Shown here piece after piece: positions 1 to 44,498 of a DNA stretch of 45,309 nucleotides. Position numbers and translations under genes: made by a program. The stretch is from Vulcanimicrobiota bacterium (lineage in GTDB: Bacteria; Vulcanimicrobiota; Vulcanimicrobiia; Vulcanimicrobiales; Vulcanimicrobiaceae), in assembly GCA_003135555.1 (NCBI GenBank), contig PLCF01000025.1, forward strand, positions 1-45,309, given 5' to 3'. Within the stretch, counting starts at the first letter, position 1. Each line of letters begins with the position of its first letter. Under the pieces are notes generated by a model. The model did not search any database. It had not been told where the DNA came from and saw nothing but the letters and a program-made list of their open reading frames with translations.

Positions 1-22
1 GGTTCGAGTCCCTCCCCGCGCA
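1..22 (+). tRNA. 3' end of a tRNA cut by the window edge, probably tRNA-Leu
   Basis: GG-TTCGAGT-CCCTC T-arm, then acceptor 3' strand CCCGCGC and discriminator A, with no encoded CCA. The anticodon is outside the window. Leu is inferred from the GCGCGGG-type acceptor stem and A73. Confidence 0.75.
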
Positions 23-753
23 ACCGATCGCTCCTCGACGCTACGAAGGTGCTTGCGAACAGCGTTGTCGCTCACGCCCAACCTCGCCCCGGCCGCGCGA
101 AACGACGTTGTATTGACCATTTCTCGCACGACCGACACTGTGGGCCAAGCAATCCTCAGGTGCTTCCCGATATTGTTCTTCGCGACTCTGCGGGCGTGTT
201 TCTGGCGGCATTCGCGTAGGCAGGCATTGCACAACAAGCGACGTCCGGGAATCTCTACAGAACACATGGCACACTGGGTCGACGTTAGCTGGCGTTTTCT
301 CTGAGAGCCTCTGCAGTAGGTCGCCGTTTGGCTGTGACAGTTAGGGCAGAGTAGACGCAGGTTCTCGATTCTATTGTCGCTCGGTACTCCGTTTATGTGG
401 TCGAGGTGAAGCACGAGGGACTGCTTCATCCATTCTGATAATCCACAGGTCACACAGCGGTTCACCATTAAGCCCGCGTCGATGAGTCGTTGTCTCAGCC
501 GAGGTGTATACGGTCCTCCGACGACGAGTAGGTCGCTTAAGGTATACGAGCGATTGCGCCACTTCAATCCATTCCAATGGTCGGTGTTCACATTCATCTC
601 TCGTAGCCGTCGCCGAAATATTCGATAGGACCCGCCGGAAACGCGCACCCCCAGAAGGTGCATCAGTGCTCCCATTGACCTGACGCGTGGGACGGCCAGT
701 CGTATCTCTGTATCGGAAACCGACCTGGACGTAAAAATCAGAAGCGTTTCCAT
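1..753 (-). CDS. HNH endonuclease with Zn-finger motifs and a C-terminal HTH-like domain (3' end off-window, not in ORF track)
   Basis: Hand translation from ATG 753 is open to base 1: ...GLMVNRCVTCGLSEWMKQSLVLHLDHINGVPSDNRIENLRLLCPNCHSQTATYC...CAMC...CNAC...IAWPTVSVVREMVNTTSFRAAGARLGVSDNAVRKHL. Upstream in-frame stop at 772-774. Confidence 0.92.
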   Translation of the reverse strand, partial: METLLIFTSRSVSDTEIRLAVPRVRSMGALMHLLGVRVSGGSYRIFRRRLREMNVNTDHWNGLKWRNRSYTLSDLLVVGGPYTPRLRQRLIDAGLMVNRCVTCGLSEWMKQSLVLHLDHINGVPSDNRIENLRLLCPNCHSQTATYCRGSQRKRQLTSTQCAMCSVEIPGRRLLCNACLRECRQKHARRVAKNNIGKHLRIAWPTVSVVREMVNTTSFRAAGARLGVSDNAVRKHLRSVEERSVARGGTRT

Positions 754-780
754 TGCTGTGTTCAAACATTCTCACCGTCG

Positions 781-800
781 TGTGCCAACAGCATGGCACA
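781..800. promoter_or_regulatory. Perfect inverted repeat TGTGCCA-N6-TGGCACA (possible operator or RNA hairpin)
   Basis: Seen directly in the 87-bp gap between the HNH start and tRNA-Gly, flanked by CGTCG...CGACG. Function is inferred. Confidence 0.4.
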
Positions 801-840
801 AGAAAACCGACGCCTTTAAGTCCAATCTCGTTGGCTATTC

Positions 841-914
841 GCAGATCTAACACAGTGGTAGTGTACCGGCGTGCCGAGCCGGAGAGACGGGTTCGATCCC
901 CGTGATCTGCACCA
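841..914 (+). tRNA. tRNA-Gly(GCC), atypical
   Basis: Acceptor GCAGATC/GATCTGC+ACCA, D-stem ACAC/GTGT, anticodon arm CCGGC-GTGCCGA-GCCGG, T-arm ACGGG-TTCGATC-CCCGT. Confidence 0.88.
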
Positions 915-915
915 T

Positions 916-989
916 GCGGGTGAAGCATTGTGGTGATGCTTCTGACTTCCAATCAGAGGAGCGGGGTTCGATCCCCCGCGCCCGCACCA
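916..989 (+). tRNA. tRNA-Gly(TCC), atypical
   Basis: Acceptor GCGGGTG/CGCCCGC+ACCA, D-stem GCAT/ATGC, anticodon arm TCTGA-CTTCCAA-TCAGA, T-arm CGGGG-TTCGATC-CCCCG. Confidence 0.92.
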
Positions 990-1030
990 TTTCGACCACC
1001 ACCACCTCGATCCGCAGAAAGGAGGCGTCC

Positions 1031-1558
1031 ATGTCGGTCCTGCTCCTCAACTTCACCTACGAGCCGCTGGGCGTCGTGGACGTCGCGCGGGCCGTGCGGC
1101 TGCTCTTCGCGCGCAAGGTCGAGCTCGTGCACGCCGGCAGCGGCGAGATCCGCTCCGTGACGGCGGCGTTTCCGCTGCCGTCGGTGGTGCGTCTCCTCTA
1201 CTACGTGGCGCGCCGCCGCAAGAAGGTCGCGCTGACGAAGAAGAACGTGCTGTTGCGCGACGACTACGTGTGCGCGTACTGCGTCGCACCGGGCGGCCGC
1301 GACATGACCGTCGACCACGTCGTGCCGCGCAGCCGCGGCGGCCGCTCGGTGTGGAAGAACCTTGTCGCCTGCTGCTCGGCGTGCAATGCGCGCAAGCGGG
1401 ACCGCACGCCGGACGAGGCGCGGATGCCGCTGCGCCGCAAGCCGCGCGAGCCGCGCTATATCCCGTGGGTGGTCGTGCGTCGCAACACGGCGCCCGACGA
1501 GTGGGGTGCGTACCTCGCACTCTACCACGTCGACATCGAAGAGCGGGTCGGGCGCTGA
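1031..1558 (+). CDS. HNH endonuclease (McrA-like, VLLLN..YEPL family)
   Basis: AAGGAGG before ATG 1031. Motifs MSVLLLNFTYEPL and RDDYVCAYC...TVDHVVPRSRGG...NLVACCSACNARK. Confidence 0.93.
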   Translation: MSVLLLNFTYEPLGVVDVARAVRLLFARKVELVHAGSGEIRSVTAAFPLPSVVRLLYYVARRRKKVALTKKNVLLRDDYVCAYCVAPGGRDMTVDHVVPRSRGGRSVWKNLVACCSACNARKRDRTPDEARMPLRRKPREPRYIPWVVVRRNTAPDEWGAYLALYHVDIEERVGR

Positions 1559-1619
1559 GCGCCCGGCTCGCTTCCGGTCGCGCAGTGAATCGGCGGGTCG
1601 CGGCAGAATAGCGGCCACC

Positions 1620-3641
1620 ATGGCGTCGGCTTGGGCCCTAGTTCGACGGTTCGCCGTGCGCATTCGGACGCAAGCGGTCCTGTTGAGCGTCGTCCCGCTG
1701 ACGTTCTTGGTGGCCCTGTTCGTCATCGCGAGCATCTTGCGGAGCGAGACGGAGCAAACGGCGGCATGGTCGCAGCTCGCGAGCAACGCGCTCAAGCAGT
1801 CGGACCTGGTCCAAAAGACGATCGGCGACGCGAACCGTGCCATCGTGGACTACACCACCAAGAACCACCGGCCGGCGGCGCTGGGCCCATACCGAGCCGC
1901 GTTGCGTGCCTTGGGTCCGCAGGTTGTGGAGCTGCGCCGACTCGTGCGCGACGAACCCTCGCAAGAAGTGCGTGCGGGGCGATTGGGGGCGCTCTCGGCC
2001 GACGTCATGGACCTGCTGACGCAATATCTCGCACTTTGGGATGCCGGCAAGAAAACCCAGGCGCCGGCGATGCTCCAACAGCCGCGCAACCGGAAGATCG
2101 TCAGCGACTGGCTCCTCGCAAAGACCGCCTTCGACGACGCCGAGCGCGCGAACACCATCGGGCGCTTCACCGACCTGCAGCGTGAAGTCGTCCTACTCAA
2201 CCGCATCCTGCTCGTAGCGTCGATCGCGGGTATCCTCTTGACGCTGTTCGTCACGGCGATGTTCGGCTTGCGGATCGCTCGCAGGTTGCAGCGCCTCGCG
2301 GAGAACGCGCAAGGGCTGGGCGAGGGCCAGCAGGCCGCGGTGATCGGCGGCAGCGACGAGATCGCCGACCTCGACCGGGTCTATCACGAGATGACGCAGC
2401 GAATCCGCGACACGCTGCAGCAAAAAGACGAGGCCCTGGCCGCGTACGAGCGCGCGCACCATGTCGCCACGACGCTGCAGCGCGCGCTCTTGCCTCAGGA
2501 GCTGCCGCAGATCGCCGGGATCGTTTTCGACGCCGTATACGAACCGGCCAAGAGCGAGGCGCAAGTCGGCGGAGATTGGTATGATGCGCTGCGCCTGGCC
2601 GATGGGCGCGTGCTGATCTCGATCGGCGACGTCGCCGGCAGCGGCTTGCAGGCAGCGGTGATCATGGCCGCCATGCGTGAGGTCATCCGCGGCGTGGCGC
2701 AGGTCTATGCCGATCCCGCCACCATCATCGACGCCGCCGACCGCACGCTCAAGACGGAGCATCTCGACAGCGTCGTAACCGCGTTCGTCGGCGTGTTCGA
2801 CCCGGTCGCGCGCACCTTGGCGTACGTCTCGGCGGGACATCCGCCGCCGCTGGTCCGCGCGCCCGACGGCACCGTCACCGACCTTCCGTCCCGCGGTCTG
2901 CCGTTGGGCATTCGCTTGCGGAACGACGCGGACGCCCGCACCGCGGCCATCCCCGCCGGCGCCACCGTGATTTTCTACACCGACGGTCTGATCGAGTCGA
3001 CCAAGGACGTCATCGCCGCCGAGCGCACGTTGCGCGCCGCGCTGGCCGATCCCAGCACGGTGGCGCGCCCGCAGGTCGCGCAGACCTTGTACGACCGCGT
3101 CCTGCACGACGGTACGCACGACGACGTTGCGATCCTCGCGATGCGCGTCGACGCTAGCTCGGCCGGCGCCGCATCGGAGGCGGCCGGTGAGCATCATCAC
3201 CGCTGGAGCTTCGACACCGGCGACTTCGCGACGGCGCAACGTTCTCGTCTCGCGTTCGCCTCGATCCTGGCCGACGGTGGGATCTGCGAAGAGGACGTGT
3301 TCACCGCCGAGCTCATCTTCGGAGAGCTGCTCAGCAACGCCGTGCGATATGCGCCCGGGCCGGTCGAAGTCGTGCTCGACCGCAGCGGCGACTCGATCGC
3401 GATCCTGCACTTTCTCGACCTCGGACCGGGTTTCATCGTGATGCCGCGGTTGCCGTCCGACCTGCTGAGCGAGCGCGGACGCGGCTTGTTTCTCGTGTGG
3501 TCGCTGGCCGAAGAGCTCAACGTGACCAAGCGCATCGACGGCGGCTCGCATGCCCGGGTCGTCCTGACGGCGCGCCGCGCCCGCAAACGCGGGGGGTCGC
3601 GGCGTCTCAAGATGGCCCAGGCCGCGACCGACACCGGCTGA
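1620..3641 (+). CDS. Membrane sensor: periplasmic domain, HAMP, SpoIIE/PP2C phosphatase and C-terminal RsbW-like HATPase
   Basis: Two TM segments, DEIADL HAMP, VGGDWYD, IGDVAGSG, YTDGL, DDVAIL, then ELLSNAVRY...DLGPGF...ERGRGLFLV. Confidence 0.88.
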   Translation: MASAWALVRRFAVRIRTQAVLLSVVPLTFLVALFVIASILRSETEQTAAWSQLASNALKQSDLVQKTIGDANRAIVDYTTKNHRPAALGPYRAALRALGPQVVELRRLVRDEPSQEVRAGRLGALSADVMDLLTQYLALWDAGKKTQAPAMLQQPRNRKIVSDWLLAKTAFDDAERANTIGRFTDLQREVVLLNRILLVASIAGILLTLFVTAMFGLRIARRLQRLAENAQGLGEGQQAAVIGGSDEIADLDRVYHEMTQRIRDTLQQKDEALAAYERAHHVATTLQRALLPQELPQIAGIVFDAVYEPAKSEAQVGGDWYDALRLADGRVLISIGDVAGSGLQAAVIMAAMREVIRGVAQVYADPATIIDAADRTLKTEHLDSVVTAFVGVFDPVARTLAYVSAGHPPPLVRAPDGTVTDLPSRGLPLGIRLRNDADARTAAIPAGATVIFYTDGLIESTKDVIAAERTLRAALADPSTVARPQVAQTLYDRVLHDGTHDDVAILAMRVDASSAGAASEAAGEHHHRWSFDTGDFATAQRSRLAFASILADGGICEEDVFTAELIFGELLSNAVRYAPGPVEVVLDRSGDSIAILHFLDLGPGFIVMPRLPSDLLSERGRGLFLVWSLAEELNVTKRIDGGSHARVVLTARRARKRGGSRRLKMAQAATDTG

Positions 3642-4468
3642 TGCGCAGCACCTTCGAGCGCGACGGTTTCGTGGTGCTGCGCGAGTTCAAGGCGCCCGGC
3701 GAGATCGCTGCACTACGGGCGCGTGCGGCTGAGATCGTCGAGGCCTTCGATCCCGGCGAGGCCGGCGCGATCTTCACCACGCGCGACGAGTCGACGACCA
3801 AGGCCGACGAGTACTTCCTGTCTTCCGGTGACAAGATCCGCTGCTTCTTCGAAGAGGAGGCTTTCGACGCGGCCGGCGGGCTACGCCAATCCAAGCCGCT
3901 CTCCATCAACAAGATCGGGCACGCGCTGCACGATCTCGATCCGGTCTTCGAGCGCTTCTCGCGCGACCCGCGGCTCCACGATCTCGCGCTCGCGCTCGGC
4001 CTCGCGCAGCCGCGCGTCTACCAGTCCATGTACATCTTCAAGCAGCCCCGGATCGGCGGTGAGGTGCGCTGGCACCAGGACGCCACGTATTTCGACACCG
4101 ATCCCGTGAGCGTGACGACGCTGTGGTTCGCGCTCGAACGGGCCGACCGCAGCAACGGCTGTCTGTGGGTGCAGCGCGGTGGGCACCGCACGCCGCTGCG
4201 CGAGCGGTTCAGCGTCGACGCCCGCGGCAGCCGGCTCGACGTGCTCGACCACACCCCCTGGCCCAACGAGGCCGTAGCTGAGCCCGTGGAGGTCGAAGCC
4301 GGCACGCTCGTCGTGCTGCACGGCTTGCTGCCCCACTACAGCGCGCCGAACCGTTCGGCCGTGTCGCGCCACGCCTATACGCTGCACTGCGTCGATGCGG
4401 GCGCGCGCTACGCGCCGACGAATTGGCTGCAGCGTTCGACCGCATTTCCCGCCCGCGACTTCGTCTAA
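3641..4468 (+). CDS. Phytanoyl-CoA dioxygenase (PhyH/PHYHD1-like)
   Basis: INKIGHALH, QSMYIFKQP, WHQD, PHYSAPNRS. ATG overlaps the upstream TGA. Confidence 0.92.
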   Translation: MRSTFERDGFVVLREFKAPGEIAALRARAAEIVEAFDPGEAGAIFTTRDESTTKADEYFLSSGDKIRCFFEEEAFDAAGGLRQSKPLSINKIGHALHDLDPVFERFSRDPRLHDLALALGLAQPRVYQSMYIFKQPRIGGEVRWHQDATYFDTDPVSVTTLWFALERADRSNGCLWVQRGGHRTPLRERFSVDARGSRLDVLDHTPWPNEAVAEPVEVEAGTLVVLHGLLPHYSAPNRSAVSRHAYTLHCVDAGARYAPTNWLQRSTAFPARDFV

Positions 4469-7850: not shown

Positions 7851-9302
7851 ATGCACGCCGGTCCGATCCAAAGCGTCCTGCTCGTCCACGGCTACAGCGT
7901 GCGTTCGCTCAACAGTTGGGGCCGGCTTCCGCAACTGCTGCAGGCCGGCGGGCTCGCGCCTGAGGCGATCTTTCTGTCGGCCTTCGTCTCCCTCGACGAC
8001 TACGTGACGTGCAACGATCTCGCGGCTGCGCTCGAGCACCAGATCGCGGCGATGGAACGCGCCGGGCTCGACCTCGGCACGACCGCGATCATCTGCCACT
8101 CCACGGGCGCGCTGGTCACCCGCCGCTGGCTGCTCGATCGCCGAGCCGCCGGTGGCAAGACACCCAGCCACCTGATCACCGCCGCCGGAGCGAATCATGG
8201 TTCGACCCTCGCGCAGTTGGGCCGCACCGAGCTGGCCCACGTGTTTCGGCACCTCACCGAACAGACCGATGTCGGAAAGCGCGTGCTCGAGGATCTCGAC
8301 TACGGCAGTACGTTCGTACGCACGCTGAACCGCGAGTGGCTCGAGGCGTGGAACGACGGCGGTGCGCCGCTATGGAAAGACGTGTACTGTTTCAGCATGG
8401 GCGGCGCGGATCATAGCTACTGGCAGAACCAGCTGGTTTGGCAGTCGCGCGAGGCAGGCTCCGACGGCACGGTGCGCATCAGCGGCGCGAATCTGAACTA
8501 CCGGTTCCTCGATCTCGCGCCGCCGTACGAAAAAATGACGCCGCTGGTCATGACGCAGCCGGCGCCGCATTTGGTCGCCCAGACGCCCGACAAACGCTAC
8601 TCGCACACCAGTCAGCACGATGCCGACACGTTGGGGATCGTGCTGGGAACGGTCGCCGGGGTCGCAAGCGAGCTCGCGCACCTCGGATCGAAGCCGCAAC
8701 CGGTGTCGCAACAGAGCTTCGGGATTCTCGAGGGGATCGTTGCGCCGGAAGAACGCCCGTTCCGCGCGCTCATCGAAGCGTTTGCCGTGCAGGACTCGGA
8801 CGCATACGTCAAGCTTGCCACGAGCTGGTACGACGAGACCAACGTTTGGGGTGCGGCGAATCCCGACGAGGTGAACGCGACGATCGTGGTGTCGATTGCG
8901 GACGAGCGGAACGCGATCGTCGACGACAGCCTGATCCTCATCCGCGACGACCAAGGGCTCCAGAGCATCTCGGCGAGCTTGCTCGGCGTGCCGATCAAGA
9001 ACGAGGTCACGCCGAGCGTCGTCAGCTTCTACGTCAACGTCCCGAAGTTCCGCGCGGCGCATCCCCACAGCGTTCACATCGAGGCCCGCACCGACACGCC
9101 TTACGTCTCGTACAGCCTCACCCTGGACGGACCGATCTCGGACGACAGCGCCCATTCGGTGACCGACAACCAAGTGACCTACGTCAACGTGCGCACCGTG
9201 CGCGACCCGTCCGCGGCGTTGGTCTTCTACAGTTTGGCGCACCCCGGCCTGGCGGCGATCCTCGACACCAACTACCCGCCGTTCCCCGCCGGCTCAGTGT
9301 AG
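7851..9302 (+). CDS. Alpha/beta-fold lipase/esterase-like protein with C-terminal beta-rich domain
   Basis: LLVHGYS, CHSTG nucleophile elbow, GANHGS, SDGTV, YSH. No signal peptide. Confidence 0.8.
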   Translation: MHAGPIQSVLLVHGYSVRSLNSWGRLPQLLQAGGLAPEAIFLSAFVSLDDYVTCNDLAAALEHQIAAMERAGLDLGTTAIICHSTGALVTRRWLLDRRAAGGKTPSHLITAAGANHGSTLAQLGRTELAHVFRHLTEQTDVGKRVLEDLDYGSTFVRTLNREWLEAWNDGGAPLWKDVYCFSMGGADHSYWQNQLVWQSREAGSDGTVRISGANLNYRFLDLAPPYEKMTPLVMTQPAPHLVAQTPDKRYSHTSQHDADTLGIVLGTVAGVASELAHLGSKPQPVSQQSFGILEGIVAPEERPFRALIEAFAVQDSDAYVKLATSWYDETNVWGAANPDEVNATIVVSIADERNAIVDDSLILIRDDQGLQSISASLLGVPIKNEVTPSVVSFYVNVPKFRAAHPHSVHIEARTDTPYVSYSLTLDGPISDDSAHSVTDNQVTYVNVRTVRDPSAALVFYSLAHPGLAAILDTNYPPFPAGSV

Positions 9303-42254: not shown

Positions 42255-44498
42255 ATGTCGGTCACTGTTGCGCAGGCCGGTCTGGTCACGCTCTCGATCG
42301 ACGGCGTCGAAGTCCGCGTCCCCAAGGGCACGTTGCTCGTCGAGGCCGCCAAAACGATCCACACCGACATCCCGGTCTACTGCTATCACGAGAAGCTCGG
42401 GCCGGCGGGGCTGTGCCGCATTTGCTTGGTCGAGATCGAAGGGATGCCCAAGCTGCAGATCGCGTGCAACACGGAGGTCGCGGATGGCATGAAGGTCCAC
42501 ACCCGGAACGCCCGCGTCGACGACGGCCGGCGCGCGATTCTGGAGTTTTTCTTGCTCAACCATCCGCTGGACTGTCCGATTTGCGACAAAGGCGGCGAGT
42601 GCGATCTGCAGGACTACGCCATGGCCTGGGGCCAGGGCGCGTCGCGCATGCTCGAGCCCAAGATGCCCAAGCCCAAAGCGGTCGATCTCGGTCCGACCAT
42701 CGTGCTCGACGAAGAACGCTGCATCGTGTGCCAGCGCTGCGTGCGCTTCGATCAGATCATCACCCGCGAAGACTCGCTGCGCACCGACGACCGCGGCGCG
42801 CATACGATCATCGCCACCGCCACCGGAAAGCCGTACGTCTCGGATTTCACCGGCAACGTCACCGAACTGTGCCCGGTCGGCGCGCTCACCTCCAAGACCT
42901 ACCGCTTTCGCTCGCGGCCGTGGGACAATCATCGTACGACCACCTCGTGCACCCAGTGCAGCGTCGGCTGTCAGATGCACGTCGACGAGCGTGACAACAC
43001 GCTGTTGCGCACCATGAGCGTCGCCGAGGATGATGCGCTCTCCGACGCCTGGCTGTGCGACCGCGGGCGCTACAACATCGGCTTCGTCGGCGACGAGCGC
43101 CGCATCGCGTCGCCGTTGCTGAAGGTCGACGGCGCCTGGAACCAGATCGCGCGGGAAGACGCGATCGCGCTGTGGGCTTCCAAGATCACCGAGGCGCTCG
43201 CCCAAGGCGGCCCGGCGCGCGTCGGCGTGATCGGCGGCGGCCGGCTTCTCAACGAAGAGATCCTGCTTGCGGCGCAGCTGCACCGGGCGCTGGGCATCGA
43301 GAACCTCGACCACCGGGTCGGCATGCAGACGATCGTCCACCACGACGGCTTCGCCAACCACGTCGATCTCGAAGGCGCGAACACGATCGTCACGCTTGGC
43401 CGGCCACCCTCGCAGCTCGCACCGATCCTCGATCTGCGCATCCGCAAGGCGGTGTCGCGCAACGGCGCGCGGCTGATCTCGGTCGGCGACTACTACGCCG
43501 GCAGCTTCGTCCCCGAAACCCACGTCACGACGGCCGAGCAGCTCAAAGCGGCCCTGGGCGAGCAGCCGGGACGCGTCGCGATCATCTGGGACGGCGTGTT
43601 CTTCGAAGGCGGTCCCGAGCTGACCGCGCCGATGCACGATCTGCCGCAGGCCGAACGCGTCGACCGCTACGTGCTGCCCGAGTCGCCCAACGGCCGGGGC
43701 GCCGACGCGCTCGGCCTGCGCCCGCGCGACGGCGGCCTGGACACGCGCGGGATGCTCGCGGCTGCGCGCGATGGCGAGCTGTCGGTGTTGGCAATCTTGG
43801 GTGCCGACCCGATGCTGCGCTTTCCCGATCGCGCGCTGGTCGAAGCCGCGCTGCGCAACGTCCCCTTCGTCGTCGTCACCGATCTCTTTCTCACCGAAAC
43901 CGCCGAGTTCGCGAACCTGGTGCTGCCGGTATGCAGCGCGTTCGAGAAGACTGGAACCACGACCGATCTCGCCGGCGACGTGCTGCCCGTCGTCGGCGCG
44001 GTGCGCGTCCCCGAGGGCGTGGTCGCCGACGGGGACCTCATCGTCGAGCTGGCGGAACGTCTGGGCGTCGCGCTGCCGCTCCCCGAGGCGATGCAGGAGC
44101 AGATCCTCCGGCTGGTGCGCACGCTGCCCGCGCCGCCCGGCGCACCGCCCTACCTGCGCAAGACCGCCGCCGTGCCGGGTGCGCTGCGCGTCGTCCCCGA
44201 GACGACGATCTTCACGGGGGGTGGAACCTTGGCGTTCGACCCCCGCATCGCCGAACTGCGGACCGGCGCCCGCGCCACGATCCATCCCGATGACGCGCGA
44301 TCGCTGCAGCTCAGCGACGGCGACCGCGTCGACGCGGTGGGTGCGCACGGGACGCGCCTGCGCGACCTCGCGGTCCGGATCGATCCGCGGGTGGCCGCCG
44401 GCGCGGTGGCGCTCGTCGACGGCATCGTCGCCGCGCCGCTGAACGCGCTCGGCGACGCCGCGTCGGTGACCCTGGAAAAGGCGGCAGTGCTCGCATGA
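42255..44498 (+). CDS. nuoG: NADH-quinone oxidoreductase subunit G
   Basis: CYH..CRIC, HPLDCPICDKGGEC, CIVCQRC, and N7-type CTQCSVGC...C. Confidence 0.95.
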   Translation: MSVTVAQAGLVTLSIDGVEVRVPKGTLLVEAAKTIHTDIPVYCYHEKLGPAGLCRICLVEIEGMPKLQIACNTEVADGMKVHTRNARVDDGRRAILEFFLLNHPLDCPICDKGGECDLQDYAMAWGQGASRMLEPKMPKPKAVDLGPTIVLDEERCIVCQRCVRFDQIITREDSLRTDDRGAHTIIATATGKPYVSDFTGNVTELCPVGALTSKTYRFRSRPWDNHRTTTSCTQCSVGCQMHVDERDNTLLRTMSVAEDDALSDAWLCDRGRYNIGFVGDERRIASPLLKVDGAWNQIAREDAIALWASKITEALAQGGPARVGVIGGGRLLNEEILLAAQLHRALGIENLDHRVGMQTIVHHDGFANHVDLEGANTIVTLGRPPSQLAPILDLRIRKAVSRNGARLISVGDYYAGSFVPETHVTTAEQLKAALGEQPGRVAIIWDGVFFEGGPELTAPMHDLPQAERVDRYVLPESPNGRGADALGLRPRDGGLDTRGMLAAARDGELSVLAILGADPMLRFPDRALVEAALRNVPFVVVTDLFLTETAEFANLVLPVCSAFEKTGTTTDLAGDVLPVVGAVRVPEGVVADGDLIVELAERLGVALPLPEAMQEQILRLVRTLPAPPGAPPYLRKTAAVPGALRVVPETTIFTGGGTLAFDPRIAELRTGARATIHPDDARSLQLSDGDRVDAVGAHGTRLRDLAVRIDPRVAAGAVALVDGIVAAPLNALGDAASVTLEKAAVLA

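Follow-up and report, generated by a model that had tools for sequence, protein, structure and literature searches.

What is an HNH nuclease gene doing directly behind a run of tRNA genes? The question is raised by positions 1-1619 of a 45,309-nucleotide (nt) stretch of DNA, the first 45 kb of contig C40 (PLCF01000025.1) of a genome, G000, from the phylum Eremiobacterota, which is also filed as Vulcanimicrobiota. We call this stretch the window. The G000 assembly has 98 contigs, is 84% complete and has a GC content of 0.68. Long arrays of accessory tRNA genes occur widely, and an HNH gene often accompanies them. The initial annotation of the window described two HNH genes among tRNA genes and took the ensemble for a candidate undescribed nuclease system. 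In the explanation that we favour, and hold as a whole to be probable, window 1-1619 forms the far end of an island of at least 8 kb that is optional in the genome and whose terminal gene, HNH2, follows a tRNA array. The features at this end are as follows.

1-25, plus strand: 3' end of an array tRNA that the contig start truncates (T-arm and acceptor 3' strand remain), with no clean CCA after it; read manually and compared with the tRNA preceding Gly(GCC) in relatives
1-765, minus strand: HNH1, putative gene for a free-standing HNH homing endonuclease of phage type, 255 amino acids or more (open reading frame (ORF), Pfam, PHROG)
841-914, plus strand: tRNA-Gly(GCC), CCA encoded, discriminator A73 (ARAGORN; Rfam 61.2 bits)
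916-989, plus strand: tRNA-Gly(UCC), CCA encoded, discriminator A73, final array tRNA (ARAGORN; Rfam 55.1 bits)
990-1030, plus strand: 41-nt spacer with the Shine-Dalgarno sequence GAAAGGAGG at 1017-1025 (sequence reading, consensus scan)
1031-1558, plus strand: HNH2, 175 amino acids, predicted PLMP-like N-domain and HNH nuclease domain, terminal gene of the array unit (HNH_5, conservation at array ends)
1031-1219, plus strand: HNH2 residues 1-63, modelled as four strands and one helix, resembling the PLMP domain of IscB/IsrB (structure model, VIA-align, hhalign)
1220-1453, plus strand: HNH2 residues 64-141, predicted IscB/Cas9-type HNH nuclease domain (Foldseek, VIA-align, profile matches)
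1559-1619, no strand: right border of the island (empty site in genome G007)
1620-3641: SpoIIE-type phosphatase gene, downstream of the island; with the PhyH gene after it, the conserved flank

ARAGORN, Rfam, the ORFs and Pfam bore out the order first described, namely a tRNA 3' end, an antisense HNH gene, tRNA-Gly(GCC), a 1-nt gap, tRNA-Gly(TCC), 41 nt and a second HNH gene. ARAGORN found exactly two tRNAs in the window, both on the plus strand and 1 nt apart; the Rfam gathering score for tRNA is 29 bits. Bases 1-25, a piece too short for any caller, were read by eye as GGTTCGAGTCC followed by the T-stem and the acceptor 3' strand, and in relatives a tRNA stands immediately 5' of Gly(GCC). 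The strong ribosome-binding site noted before HNH2 is GAAAGGAGG, which ends 5 nt before the ATG. The consensus scan also agreed that no terminator is evident: no terminator-like site was found in 989-1031 or in 1558-1620, and no sigma-70-like promoter in window 1-3800. The GC content is 0.52-0.62 over window 1-900 and 0.69-0.73 over 1000-1600. The two HNH genes were rightly called unrelated, as they fall into different Pfam and PHROG families and have no relationship outside the HNH core.

Comparison within 31 genomes of the class (G000, 18 congeners and 12 genomes of other genera) places this end of the contig in a larger unit. A feature missing from an incomplete genome is reported as not found, not as absent. 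Contig C83 of G000 ends with 16 densely packed tRNA genes and a 17th of which the 5' part is left. Just before the array, on the opposite strand, C83 encodes a TROVE/Rsr protein and an RtcB ligase (Rsr, NCBIfam NF041674 E 1.1e-160; RtcB models, E 4e-51 to 2e-127). In six loci of the same genus, TROVE and/or RtcB genes, an array of 14-25 tRNAs and HNH2 lie on a single contig. Three of these (L039, L042 and L043) have the complete order orf192-TROVE-RtcB, array, HNH2, SpoIIE-type phosphatase, PhyH, and L044 agrees with them except that orf192 gave no match. In L040 and L041 no SpoIIE gene was matched, and PhyH directly follows HNH2; RtcB is not matched in L040, and in L041 RtcB and TROVE are present as fragments only. 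Rsr and RtcB are neighbours in five loci of relatives. The tRNA order Trp-like ... Arg(CCG)-Gln(UUG) ... Gly(GCC)-Gly(UCC) is common to the relatives and both halves of G000. In G007 (4 contigs, 94% complete) the flank genes of C83 abut the phosphatase gene, which constitutes an empty site, and no tRNA, Rsr, RtcB or HNH2 was found between these flanks. C83 and C40 can therefore be joined, because of the synteny in relatives and the empty site of G007. The C83 array, the loci of relatives and the empty site agree with the earlier proposal that what stands at the window start is an accessory tRNA array at its 3' end. The search for rtcB and TROVE genes upstream of it that had been proposed was also rewarded, since both lie just before the array on C83 and in relatives.

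The island starts after approximately C83:43,690 and ends at approximately window 1,600. Its order is two small ORFs, orf192 and Rsr-RtcB on one strand, then the leader, the tRNA array and HNH2 on the other. The two small ORFs, at C83 ~43,700-44,200, are similar to each other, lie on the minus strand at the left island edge and precede orf192, which has no NCBIfam match. Alignment of the G007 empty site with the G000 borders (blastn) revealed flank homology only and no direct repeats. G015, a metagenome-assembled genome (MAG) that is 70% complete and 3% contaminated, contains two full island copies, on C8 (L043) and C20 (L039), which may be a true duplication or a strain mix.

The array of G000, split by the assembly gap, has 18 complete and two cut tRNA genes, and the five uncut arrays found in four relatives hold 21-25 tRNAs in ~2.2-3.3 kb. 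The L-array criterion of Tran et al. is at least 20 tRNA genes at a density of at least 2 per kb. A non-array copy with the same anticodon exists for 13 of the 18 complete array tRNAs in this 84%-complete assembly, at an identity of just 55-82%; the array Gly(UCC) and its non-array counterpart on contig C64 share 76% identity. The array Gly(GCC) has 68-81% identity to that of four congeners. Among congeners, array Gly tRNAs are 68-81% identical, versus 76-100% in nine comparisons of non-array tRNAs. On these comparisons the array is, as far as sequence can tell, a redundant and fast-evolving second tRNA set of the kind called an L-array or tRNA array unit. We also considered the two Gly tRNAs as housekeeping genes; the non-array copies, the divergence among congeners and the empty site rule this out.

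Several array tRNAs have unusual features. Both array tRNA-Gly genes carry A73, versus U73 in the two non-array tRNA-Gly genes (G000:C64:1410 and C19:52963), and array Gly tRNAs of several relatives carry U73. U73 is said to be required by bacterial glycyl-tRNA synthetase (GlyRS). The first array element is a 69-71-nt 'tRNA-Trp(CCA)' call with a shortened D-arm and 26.8 bits in Rfam (L001 8407-8475; L042 8288-8355), and is possibly a tRNA-like module and not a working tRNA. A tRNA with a CUA anticodon, of the amber-suppressor type and called 'Pyl' by ARAGORN, is present in the G000 array (G000:C83:49917-49991, equal to L001 9637-9711). In the array of G009, one tRNA-like gene was called with an anticodon of four bases (aaac; L044 5547-5623).

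HNH2 matches Pfam HNH_5 (E 1.4e-13), and its homologs in the 31 genomes occur in two forms. Group A has 71-88% identity to HNH2 (nine loci, eight congeners) and group B has 54-58%; G000 carries its own group-B copy on contig C66, and either form was matched in 28 of the 31 genomes. The genome G030, flagged as unpublished, supplies one group-B row (L033) to the tally, alignments, tree and folds and one RtcB match, and no conclusion hinges on it. A count of tRNA neighbours of homologs of 1031-1558, as the initial annotation had suggested, was made within 1.5 kb of each homolog. tRNAs lie directly upstream in eight of the nine group-A loci, versus none of the 21 loci of the core paralog (group B), which have no tRNA of any kind in this range. 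In seven of the nine, 7-16 tRNAs lie directly upstream on the same strand. At the G011 locus a single tRNA-Pro stands between RtcB and the HNH gene, and at the G010 locus there is no tRNA and the HNH gene abuts a decayed TROVE gene.

Group-A HNH2 was found in 9 of the 31 genomes including G000 (8 of 18 congeners) and Rsr in 11, every one of them in the genus of G000; the 12 genomes from other genera yielded neither. All nine group-A genomes hold Rsr or its remnants on the same contig, or in G004 on a neighbouring one, and group-A HNH2 was found in none of the 20 Rsr-negative genomes. Rsr without group-A HNH2 was seen in G008 and G014 only, and both assemblies are fragmented (410 and 200 contigs, respectively).

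The ratio of nonsynonymous to synonymous substitution rates (dN/dS) has a median of 0.32 in group A (36 pairs) and is 0.15 in group B, values that indicate purifying selection on group-A HNH2. The zinc-binding and catalytic residues are invariant in 84 family members. A quick maximum-likelihood tree of 89 rows, in which long branches make deep placements unsure, puts all Eremiobacterota rows in one starred clade (99) split into group A (94) and group B (90), and the plasmid array HNHs on separate long branches. HNH2 thus appears to have arisen by duplication of a chromosomal gene that is core to the class. Even on the starred branches alone, tRNA adjacency needs at least five changes.

Outside the class, tblastn gave homologs on 87 plasmids and 121 phages, and five of these were inspected. 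The homolog on Mycolicibacterium plasmid pCBMA213_1 (37.6% identity) lies inside a 29-tRNA array, that of a Nostoc plasmid immediately 5' of 21 tRNAs, and that of Synechococcus phage S-CRM01 among scattered tRNAs; the homologs of Acaryochloris plasmid pREB6 and a Gordonia phage have no tRNA within 5 kb. On pCC7120delta of Nostoc sp. PCC 7120, a homolog with 36% identity over 144 residues (E 1e-32, both domains) is located directly before 24 tRNAs. By its position we infer that this gene, 52366-52902 of NC_003273.1, is all8564 of PMC8421152. Among 80 public loci of the family, 18 have a tRNA within 4 kb and seven a same-strand tRNA cluster directly upstream; six of the seven are from Anaerolineae and one is from a MAG labelled Heliomicrobium. 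In the six Anaerolineae MAG loci (L090, L091, L092, L098, L106 and L117) the sole family member follows a same-strand Leu-Ala-Gly-Phe-Gln-His cluster or part of it, and in the Heliomicrobium-labelled MAG (L134) the family member begins 23 nt after 11 tRNAs. The neighbours of the core form at 15 loci from several phyla include no conserved partner and no mobile-element gene by Pfam. Taken at face value, the gene tree and the neighbourhoods describe a family of core chromosomal genes in which linkage to tRNAs arose on several independent occasions.

The structure predicted for HNH2 points to the lineage of IscB. A first AlphaFold model from a 21-sequence alignment was discarded as too poor (predicted local distance difference test score, pLDDT, 61.8), and a model from an 84-row alignment reached a pLDDT of 86.9. 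In the latter, residues 64-141 match the HNH domains of Cas9d, IscB, Cas9 and the Gme nicking enzyme (Foldseek E to 2e-4; VIA-align Z 10.3 to 9k32_A), with a zinc site formed by C81, C84, C115 and C118, and with D95-H96 and N119. Among relatives of solved structure, TbaIscB ranks first by sequence profile (E 3.6e-17), and hhalign gave a probability of 99% between the HNH2 family and IscB of the same phylum. Residues 1-63 resemble the N-domains of IscB/IsrB in VIA-align, with 9k2z_A residues 2-51 matched at Z 6.9 and a root mean square deviation (rmsd) of 1.4 A over 50 residues. Further matches were to 9k30_A (Z 5.8) and 8dmb_P (Z 5.0), and the rmsd ranged from 1.4 to 2.9 A over 50 residues. 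When the N-domains alone were compared with those of ten same-phylum IscB by hhalign, the probability was 72% (E 3.4e-5) and the alignment was in register (VLLLNxxxEPL versus VFVLDxxxKPLMP); control comparisons with two other IscB segments yielded 0.1%, and HNH2 had no alignment to the RuvC parts of IscB in these controls. Foldseek with the good model and full-length hhalign of the family against IscB each returned the HNH part only, and the ESM Atlas gave no usable match for residues 1-64. The N-domain is thus, with moderate support, predicted to be PLMP-like.

HNH2 would then be a PLMP-plus-HNH protein, an IscB-like nuclease without RuvC and a cut-down relative of the ancestors of Cas9, again with moderate support for the PLMP part. 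This architecture is called IshB, a name given by Altae-Tran et al. 2021 according to excerpts of PMC10734217 and PMC11610941, and consists of PLMP and HNH without RuvC in ~180 amino acids. HNH2 resembles IshB in its length of 175 amino acids, its PLMP-like N-domain, an HNH domain closest to IscB/Cas9d and the lack of RuvC. Unlike IshB, however, HNH2 was seen with no IS200/IS605 context, transposase or omega-RNA, and most members of its family are stable chromosomal genes, some of them tRNA-linked. The family motif also differs from PLMP and reads EPLG/EALN. No transposase domain was among the Pfam matches of the neighbours at 15 family loci, a scan that did not take in orf192 and the two small island ORFs. 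Among the papers listed by a literature search, none ties the PLMP/IshB architecture to tRNA arrays. Full-length IscB (NF040563 above cut-off; L151-L163) is present in 7 of 301 sampled genomes of the phylum and was found in none of the 19 of this genus in that sample.

The intergenic region between RtcB and the array is conserved in six genomes (L001 ~8093-8410, aligned with L039 and L042-L045). It contains two invariant TTGACA boxes in opposite directions (L001 ~8093-8100 and 8164-8173) and an invariant TAGGAT (L001 8191-8196), 17-18 nt after the array-facing TTGACA. A leader of ~214 nt follows, with covarying hairpins and then an invariant GC-rich hairpin and T-run just before the first tRNA-like element. 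The arrangement suggests that the repair genes and the array are transcribed divergently and possibly with attenuation, and the leader is a candidate Y-like RNA or attenuator beside rsr. The leader region has no Rfam match; at E up to 1, L042 7900-9000 gave no Y-RNA and a weak BjrC68 match on the terminator-like hairpin. At gathering score the Rfam scan returned tRNAs and one c-di-AMP riboswitch only, with no Y-RNA, GOLLD or ROOL, so that the GOLLD element that had been thought worth seeking upstream has no match.

The spacer between the last tRNA and HNH2 is 27-57 nt long with a conserved Shine-Dalgarno sequence in seven of nine loci (the window and eight relatives), and the motif CACGAAAGGAGGCGA in this spacer is common to the group-A relatives. 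The initial annotation held that HNH2 probably shares the tRNA transcript. Co-transcription is plausible because the spacers are short, the Shine-Dalgarno sequence is conserved and no promoter or terminator was found, and HNH2 is probably translated from the array transcript; for G000 itself this part of the claim is less secure, with HNH1 lying in between. No RNA run was listed for window 700-2200, and three metatranscriptome runs of one study contained next to none of its words.

HNH1 has a different history from HNH2. Its ORF (765 to 1, minus strand, 255 amino acids) runs off the contig at the C-terminus, where it is antisense to the upstream tRNA. Its Pfam matches are HNH_3 (E 4e-6, above cut-off), HNH and, weakly, a helix-turn-helix (HTH) model, the motif HLDH...N...NCH is present, and residues 13-242 of 255 give a full-length match to phrog_10822 (E 1.9e-42). 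The GC content is ~52-57% over most of the gene versus 68% for the genome. HNH1 was found by tblastn in none of the nine array loci of relatives, and no full-length ortholog was found in the 30 relatives. It matches 222 phage records, and three of the best homologs were inspected. That of an Enterococcus phage, annotated 'H-N-H endonuclease F-TflIV', lies between tRNA-Asn and tRNA-Ser, that of a Rhodococcus phage follows tRNA-Phe, and the third has no tRNA nearby. HNH1 is therefore best read, on homology and position, as an intact phage-type homing endonuclease gene inserted antisense between two array tRNA genes, a sporadic invader and not a partner of HNH2. A reading of HNH1 and HNH2 as the two parts of one system was rejected since HNH1 is absent from the arrays of all relatives.

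SegB of phage T4 and the HNH enzymes of the T5 tRNA region (F-Tfl family) are homing or nicking endonucleases encoded among phage tRNA genes. HNH1 is like T4 SegB and T5 F-Tfl in its family match and in its best phage homolog, which is annotated F-TflIV and stands between phage tRNAs; unlike them it belongs to a bacterial chromosome, where it runs antisense to the array. Excerpts of PMC8421152 cite SegB as promoting the inheritance of the tRNA region of T4. At other positions, arrays and islands of relatives contain a LAGLIDADG ORF, another HNH ORF, a DIP1984-family gene and, in one case, an intein in RtcB; the LAGLIDADG and HNH genes and the intein are invaders of the same sort as HNH1. Low-GC LAGLIDADG-type ORFs, recognised by motif only, lie in the G002 array (L040 5271-5831) and in G015 in the spacer between the last tRNA and HNH2 (L011 2029-2843, 815 bp). 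The DIP1984-family gene (NF038048; E 5.7e-42 for the L042 copy) lies within the array, on the array strand, in three relatives (L040 6902-7390, L041 6767-7276 and L042 6916-7377). The RtcB of the G015:C20 island is split by an intein of ~320 amino acids with an HNH motif (L039 9526-10611), and the best NCBIfam model for the uninterrupted RtcB of G000 is the 'intein-containing RtcB' family.

Weaker paralogs of HNH1 adjoin non-array tRNAs, one of them beside Thr/Tyr/Gly in G000 and G015. A 192-amino-acid HNH1-type gene is located directly upstream of tRNA-Gln(CUG)-Glu(CUC) in G000 (C69:28962-29540; L008 1471-2049) and at 11 loci of relatives (L054-L063 and L066), throughout the genus. It overlaps the tRNA by 15 nt in G000 and has an in-frame TGA in three copies, and the adjoining tRNA-Gln is unusually variable among congeners (76-92% identity).

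The locus is of a published kind, in which tRNA arrays are accompanied by a linked HNH and rtcB (PMC8421152, PMC5966550). The view of it as an undescribed system does not hold, because L-arrays with a linked, co-regulated HNH and rtcB are published and HNH2 is homologous to the array HNH of PCC 7120, as far as the excerpts of these papers go. Excerpts of PMC8421152 describe cyanobacterial L-arrays that have an HNH gene upstream; in Anabaena, translation inhibitors co-induce the array, its HNH and rtcB. The island resembles the pCC7120delta array described there in its dense supernumerary tRNAs, more than 20 in the uncut arrays of relatives, patchy distribution, an HNH of the same family and a link to rtcB. 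It differs in that HNH2 follows the array whereas the Anabaena HNH precedes it, in that RtcB and Rsr of the island are physically adjacent and divergent to the array, in being chromosomal, and in that HNH2 is a duplicate of the phylum's own core gene; Eremiobacterota are without mention in the accessible part of PMC8421152. HNH is the most widespread coding sequence in mycobacterial tRNA arrays according to excerpts of PMC5966550 (Morgado and Vicente 2018), and the array HNH of such units (pCBMA213_1) is homologous to HNH2. Those units, however, are on plasmids or phages and have the HNH inside the array, and no Rsr-RtcB is noted for them in the same excerpts.

The RNA-repair operon rsr-yrlBA-rtcBA of Salmonella consists of Rsr/Ro60, Y RNAs and RtcB. 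The island shares with it the position of Rsr next to RtcB and a tRNA-like element (26.8 bits) nearby, but has no Rfam Y-RNA match and a whole tRNA array in place of the Y RNAs.

How might such an island work? The conserved promoter-like region would drive the ~214-nt structured leader, the tRNA array and then HNH2. By analogy with Anabaena, array and rtcB may respond to translational or RNA-damage stress, so that the island would be a translational-stress or RNA-damage module. Spare tRNAs might replenish or shield the tRNA pool while RtcB reseals cut tRNAs. HNH2 itself might nick or cut DNA at or near tRNA-gene sequences, and this cutting could drive recombination or gene conversion by which the array is kept, reshuffled and spread. 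We put this DNA-level role of HNH2 forward with modest confidence, as a tentative reading whose chances fall a little short of even.

Several observations weigh against this explanation as a whole or against its parts. The gap between the tail of C83 and the head of C40 is unsequenced, and neither the C83 end nor that of any other contig overlaps the C40 head by 12 nt or more. The matches of Rsr and RtcB are all under the NCBIfam curated cut-offs. The PLMP call comes from Z scores of 5-7, which the notes of the tool class as middling, and one profile match of 72% probability, and the motif of HNH2 is EPLG and not PLMP. Co-transcription of array and HNH2, and induction by stress, are things that we infer. 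In G000 the antisense HNH1 gene (815 bp) separates the rest of the array from Gly-Gly-HNH2, and because HNH1 intervenes, read-through from the array promoter is less certain than in the relatives. As for homing or spreading, HNH2 has as its closest kin a core gene that is inherited vertically and occurs in 28 of the 31 genomes, in surroundings that are neither mobile nor tRNA-bearing. In the tree, group A pairs with the core clade rather than with the plasmid array HNHs, and so the HNH2 gene did not travel with arrays between phyla. The position of HNH2 is fixed and the gene is under purifying selection, unlike typical homing endonucleases, and it persists in G010, where the array is gone, and in G011, where one tRNA is left.

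The main rival to a DNA-level role is that HNH2 is an RNA-associated nuclease, whose PLMP domain binds a structured RNA encoded upstream (a tRNA, the array precursor or the leader) that targets, activates or restrains the HNH domain. HNH2 would then act on RNA state, by processing, damaged-tRNA sensing or RNA-directed DNA cutting, and not in homing; we consider this rather unlikely. The PLMP-like fold and profile match agree with it, and excerpts of PMC9581776 report that the PLMP domain of IsrB contacts the terminal hairpins and Shine-Dalgarno sequence of its guide RNA (omega-RNA). The layout of structured RNA, Shine-Dalgarno sequence and PLMP protein also recurs, with 27-57-nt spacers in seven of nine loci. 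The family stands directly after tRNA clusters in six Anaerolineae loci and one Bacillota-labelled MAG, it adjoins arrays in Nostoc and Mycolicibacterium, the adjacency arose at least five times, and RNA-repair genes are neighbours. However, RNA binding by HNH2 is a conjecture from the predicted fold, and PLMP of IsrB is also a protein scaffold for RuvC, which HNH2 lacks. The Nostoc HNH lies upstream of its array, and most family members have no tRNA nearby (at least 62 of 80 public loci and all 21 core loci). The same adjacency would moreover be expected from homing enzymes that target tRNA genes.

Two further explanations take a different view of the HNH gene or of the island. HNH2 might be a passenger, a duplicate of the core HNH gene that landed beside the island in an ancestor of the genus and was inherited with it without a functional tie to the tRNAs. 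The sister relationship of group A to the core clade of the same class, the survival of HNH2 without the array in G010 and nearly so in G011, and the lack of tRNA or mobile context around the core copies are what would be expected of a passenger. Against this, members of the family are linked to arrays in four or more further lineages, and the Anabaena homolog is co-regulated with its array (excerpts of PMC8421152). Moreover, nine of nine group-A genomes hold Rsr or its remnants and none of the 20 Rsr-negative genomes holds group A, and the spacing is operon-like and tight with a conserved Shine-Dalgarno sequence; a passenger is thus distinctly improbable. We give still less weight to the island as defence or counter-defence cargo, in which tRNAs would be decoys or replacements against anticodon nucleases, RtcB and Rsr would repair or clear RNA and HNH2 would be a DNA-cutting effector. 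Arrays have been called putative anti-defence systems (excerpts of PMC12803027), a sponge idea for array tRNAs is discussed in PMC8421152, as its excerpts show, the array tRNAs have diverged, down to the A73 that both Gly tRNAs have where non-array Gly has U73, and RNA-repair neighbours are present. On the other side, no defence model was matched in scans that did not include PADLOC, NCBIfam gave weak HNH-core matches to PtuB and ZorE, the island contains no phage genes, and the role of HNH2 would be pure conjecture. This makes it very unlikely.

With a nuclease acting near tRNA genes as our preferred reading of HNH2, the locus is a chromosomal example, from a barely studied phylum, of array, HNH, RtcB and Rsr in one indel-defined island, and the physical linkage seen here strengthens the published array-HNH-rtcB link. 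Beyond what the excerpts of PMC8421152 and PMC5966550 report, it adds the PLMP-plus-HNH build of the array HNH family, at the moderate support given above, and a core gene family that appears to have become tRNA-linked several separate times. Because of this build and the repeated linkage, array-HNH function is directly testable in Anabaena, which offers genetic tools and a phenotype. A bolder extension, and an unlikely one, is that the whole tRNA-array HNH family including that of Anabaena consists of RuvC-less cousins of IscB whose PLMP domain binds a structured RNA transcribed from the adjoining upstream DNA, which at this locus would be a tRNA or the array precursor. If true, tRNA arrays and HNH would be a natural tRNA-coupled nuclease system tying DNA cutting to the state of the tRNA pool, and array HNHs would be a living side branch of the lineage leading to Cas9.

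Elsewhere in G000, the c-di-AMP riboswitch found by Rfam (69.7 bits; L003 1225-1365, contig C87) has a non-array tRNA-Gln(UUG) at a distance of ~1.1 kb, at the contig start.

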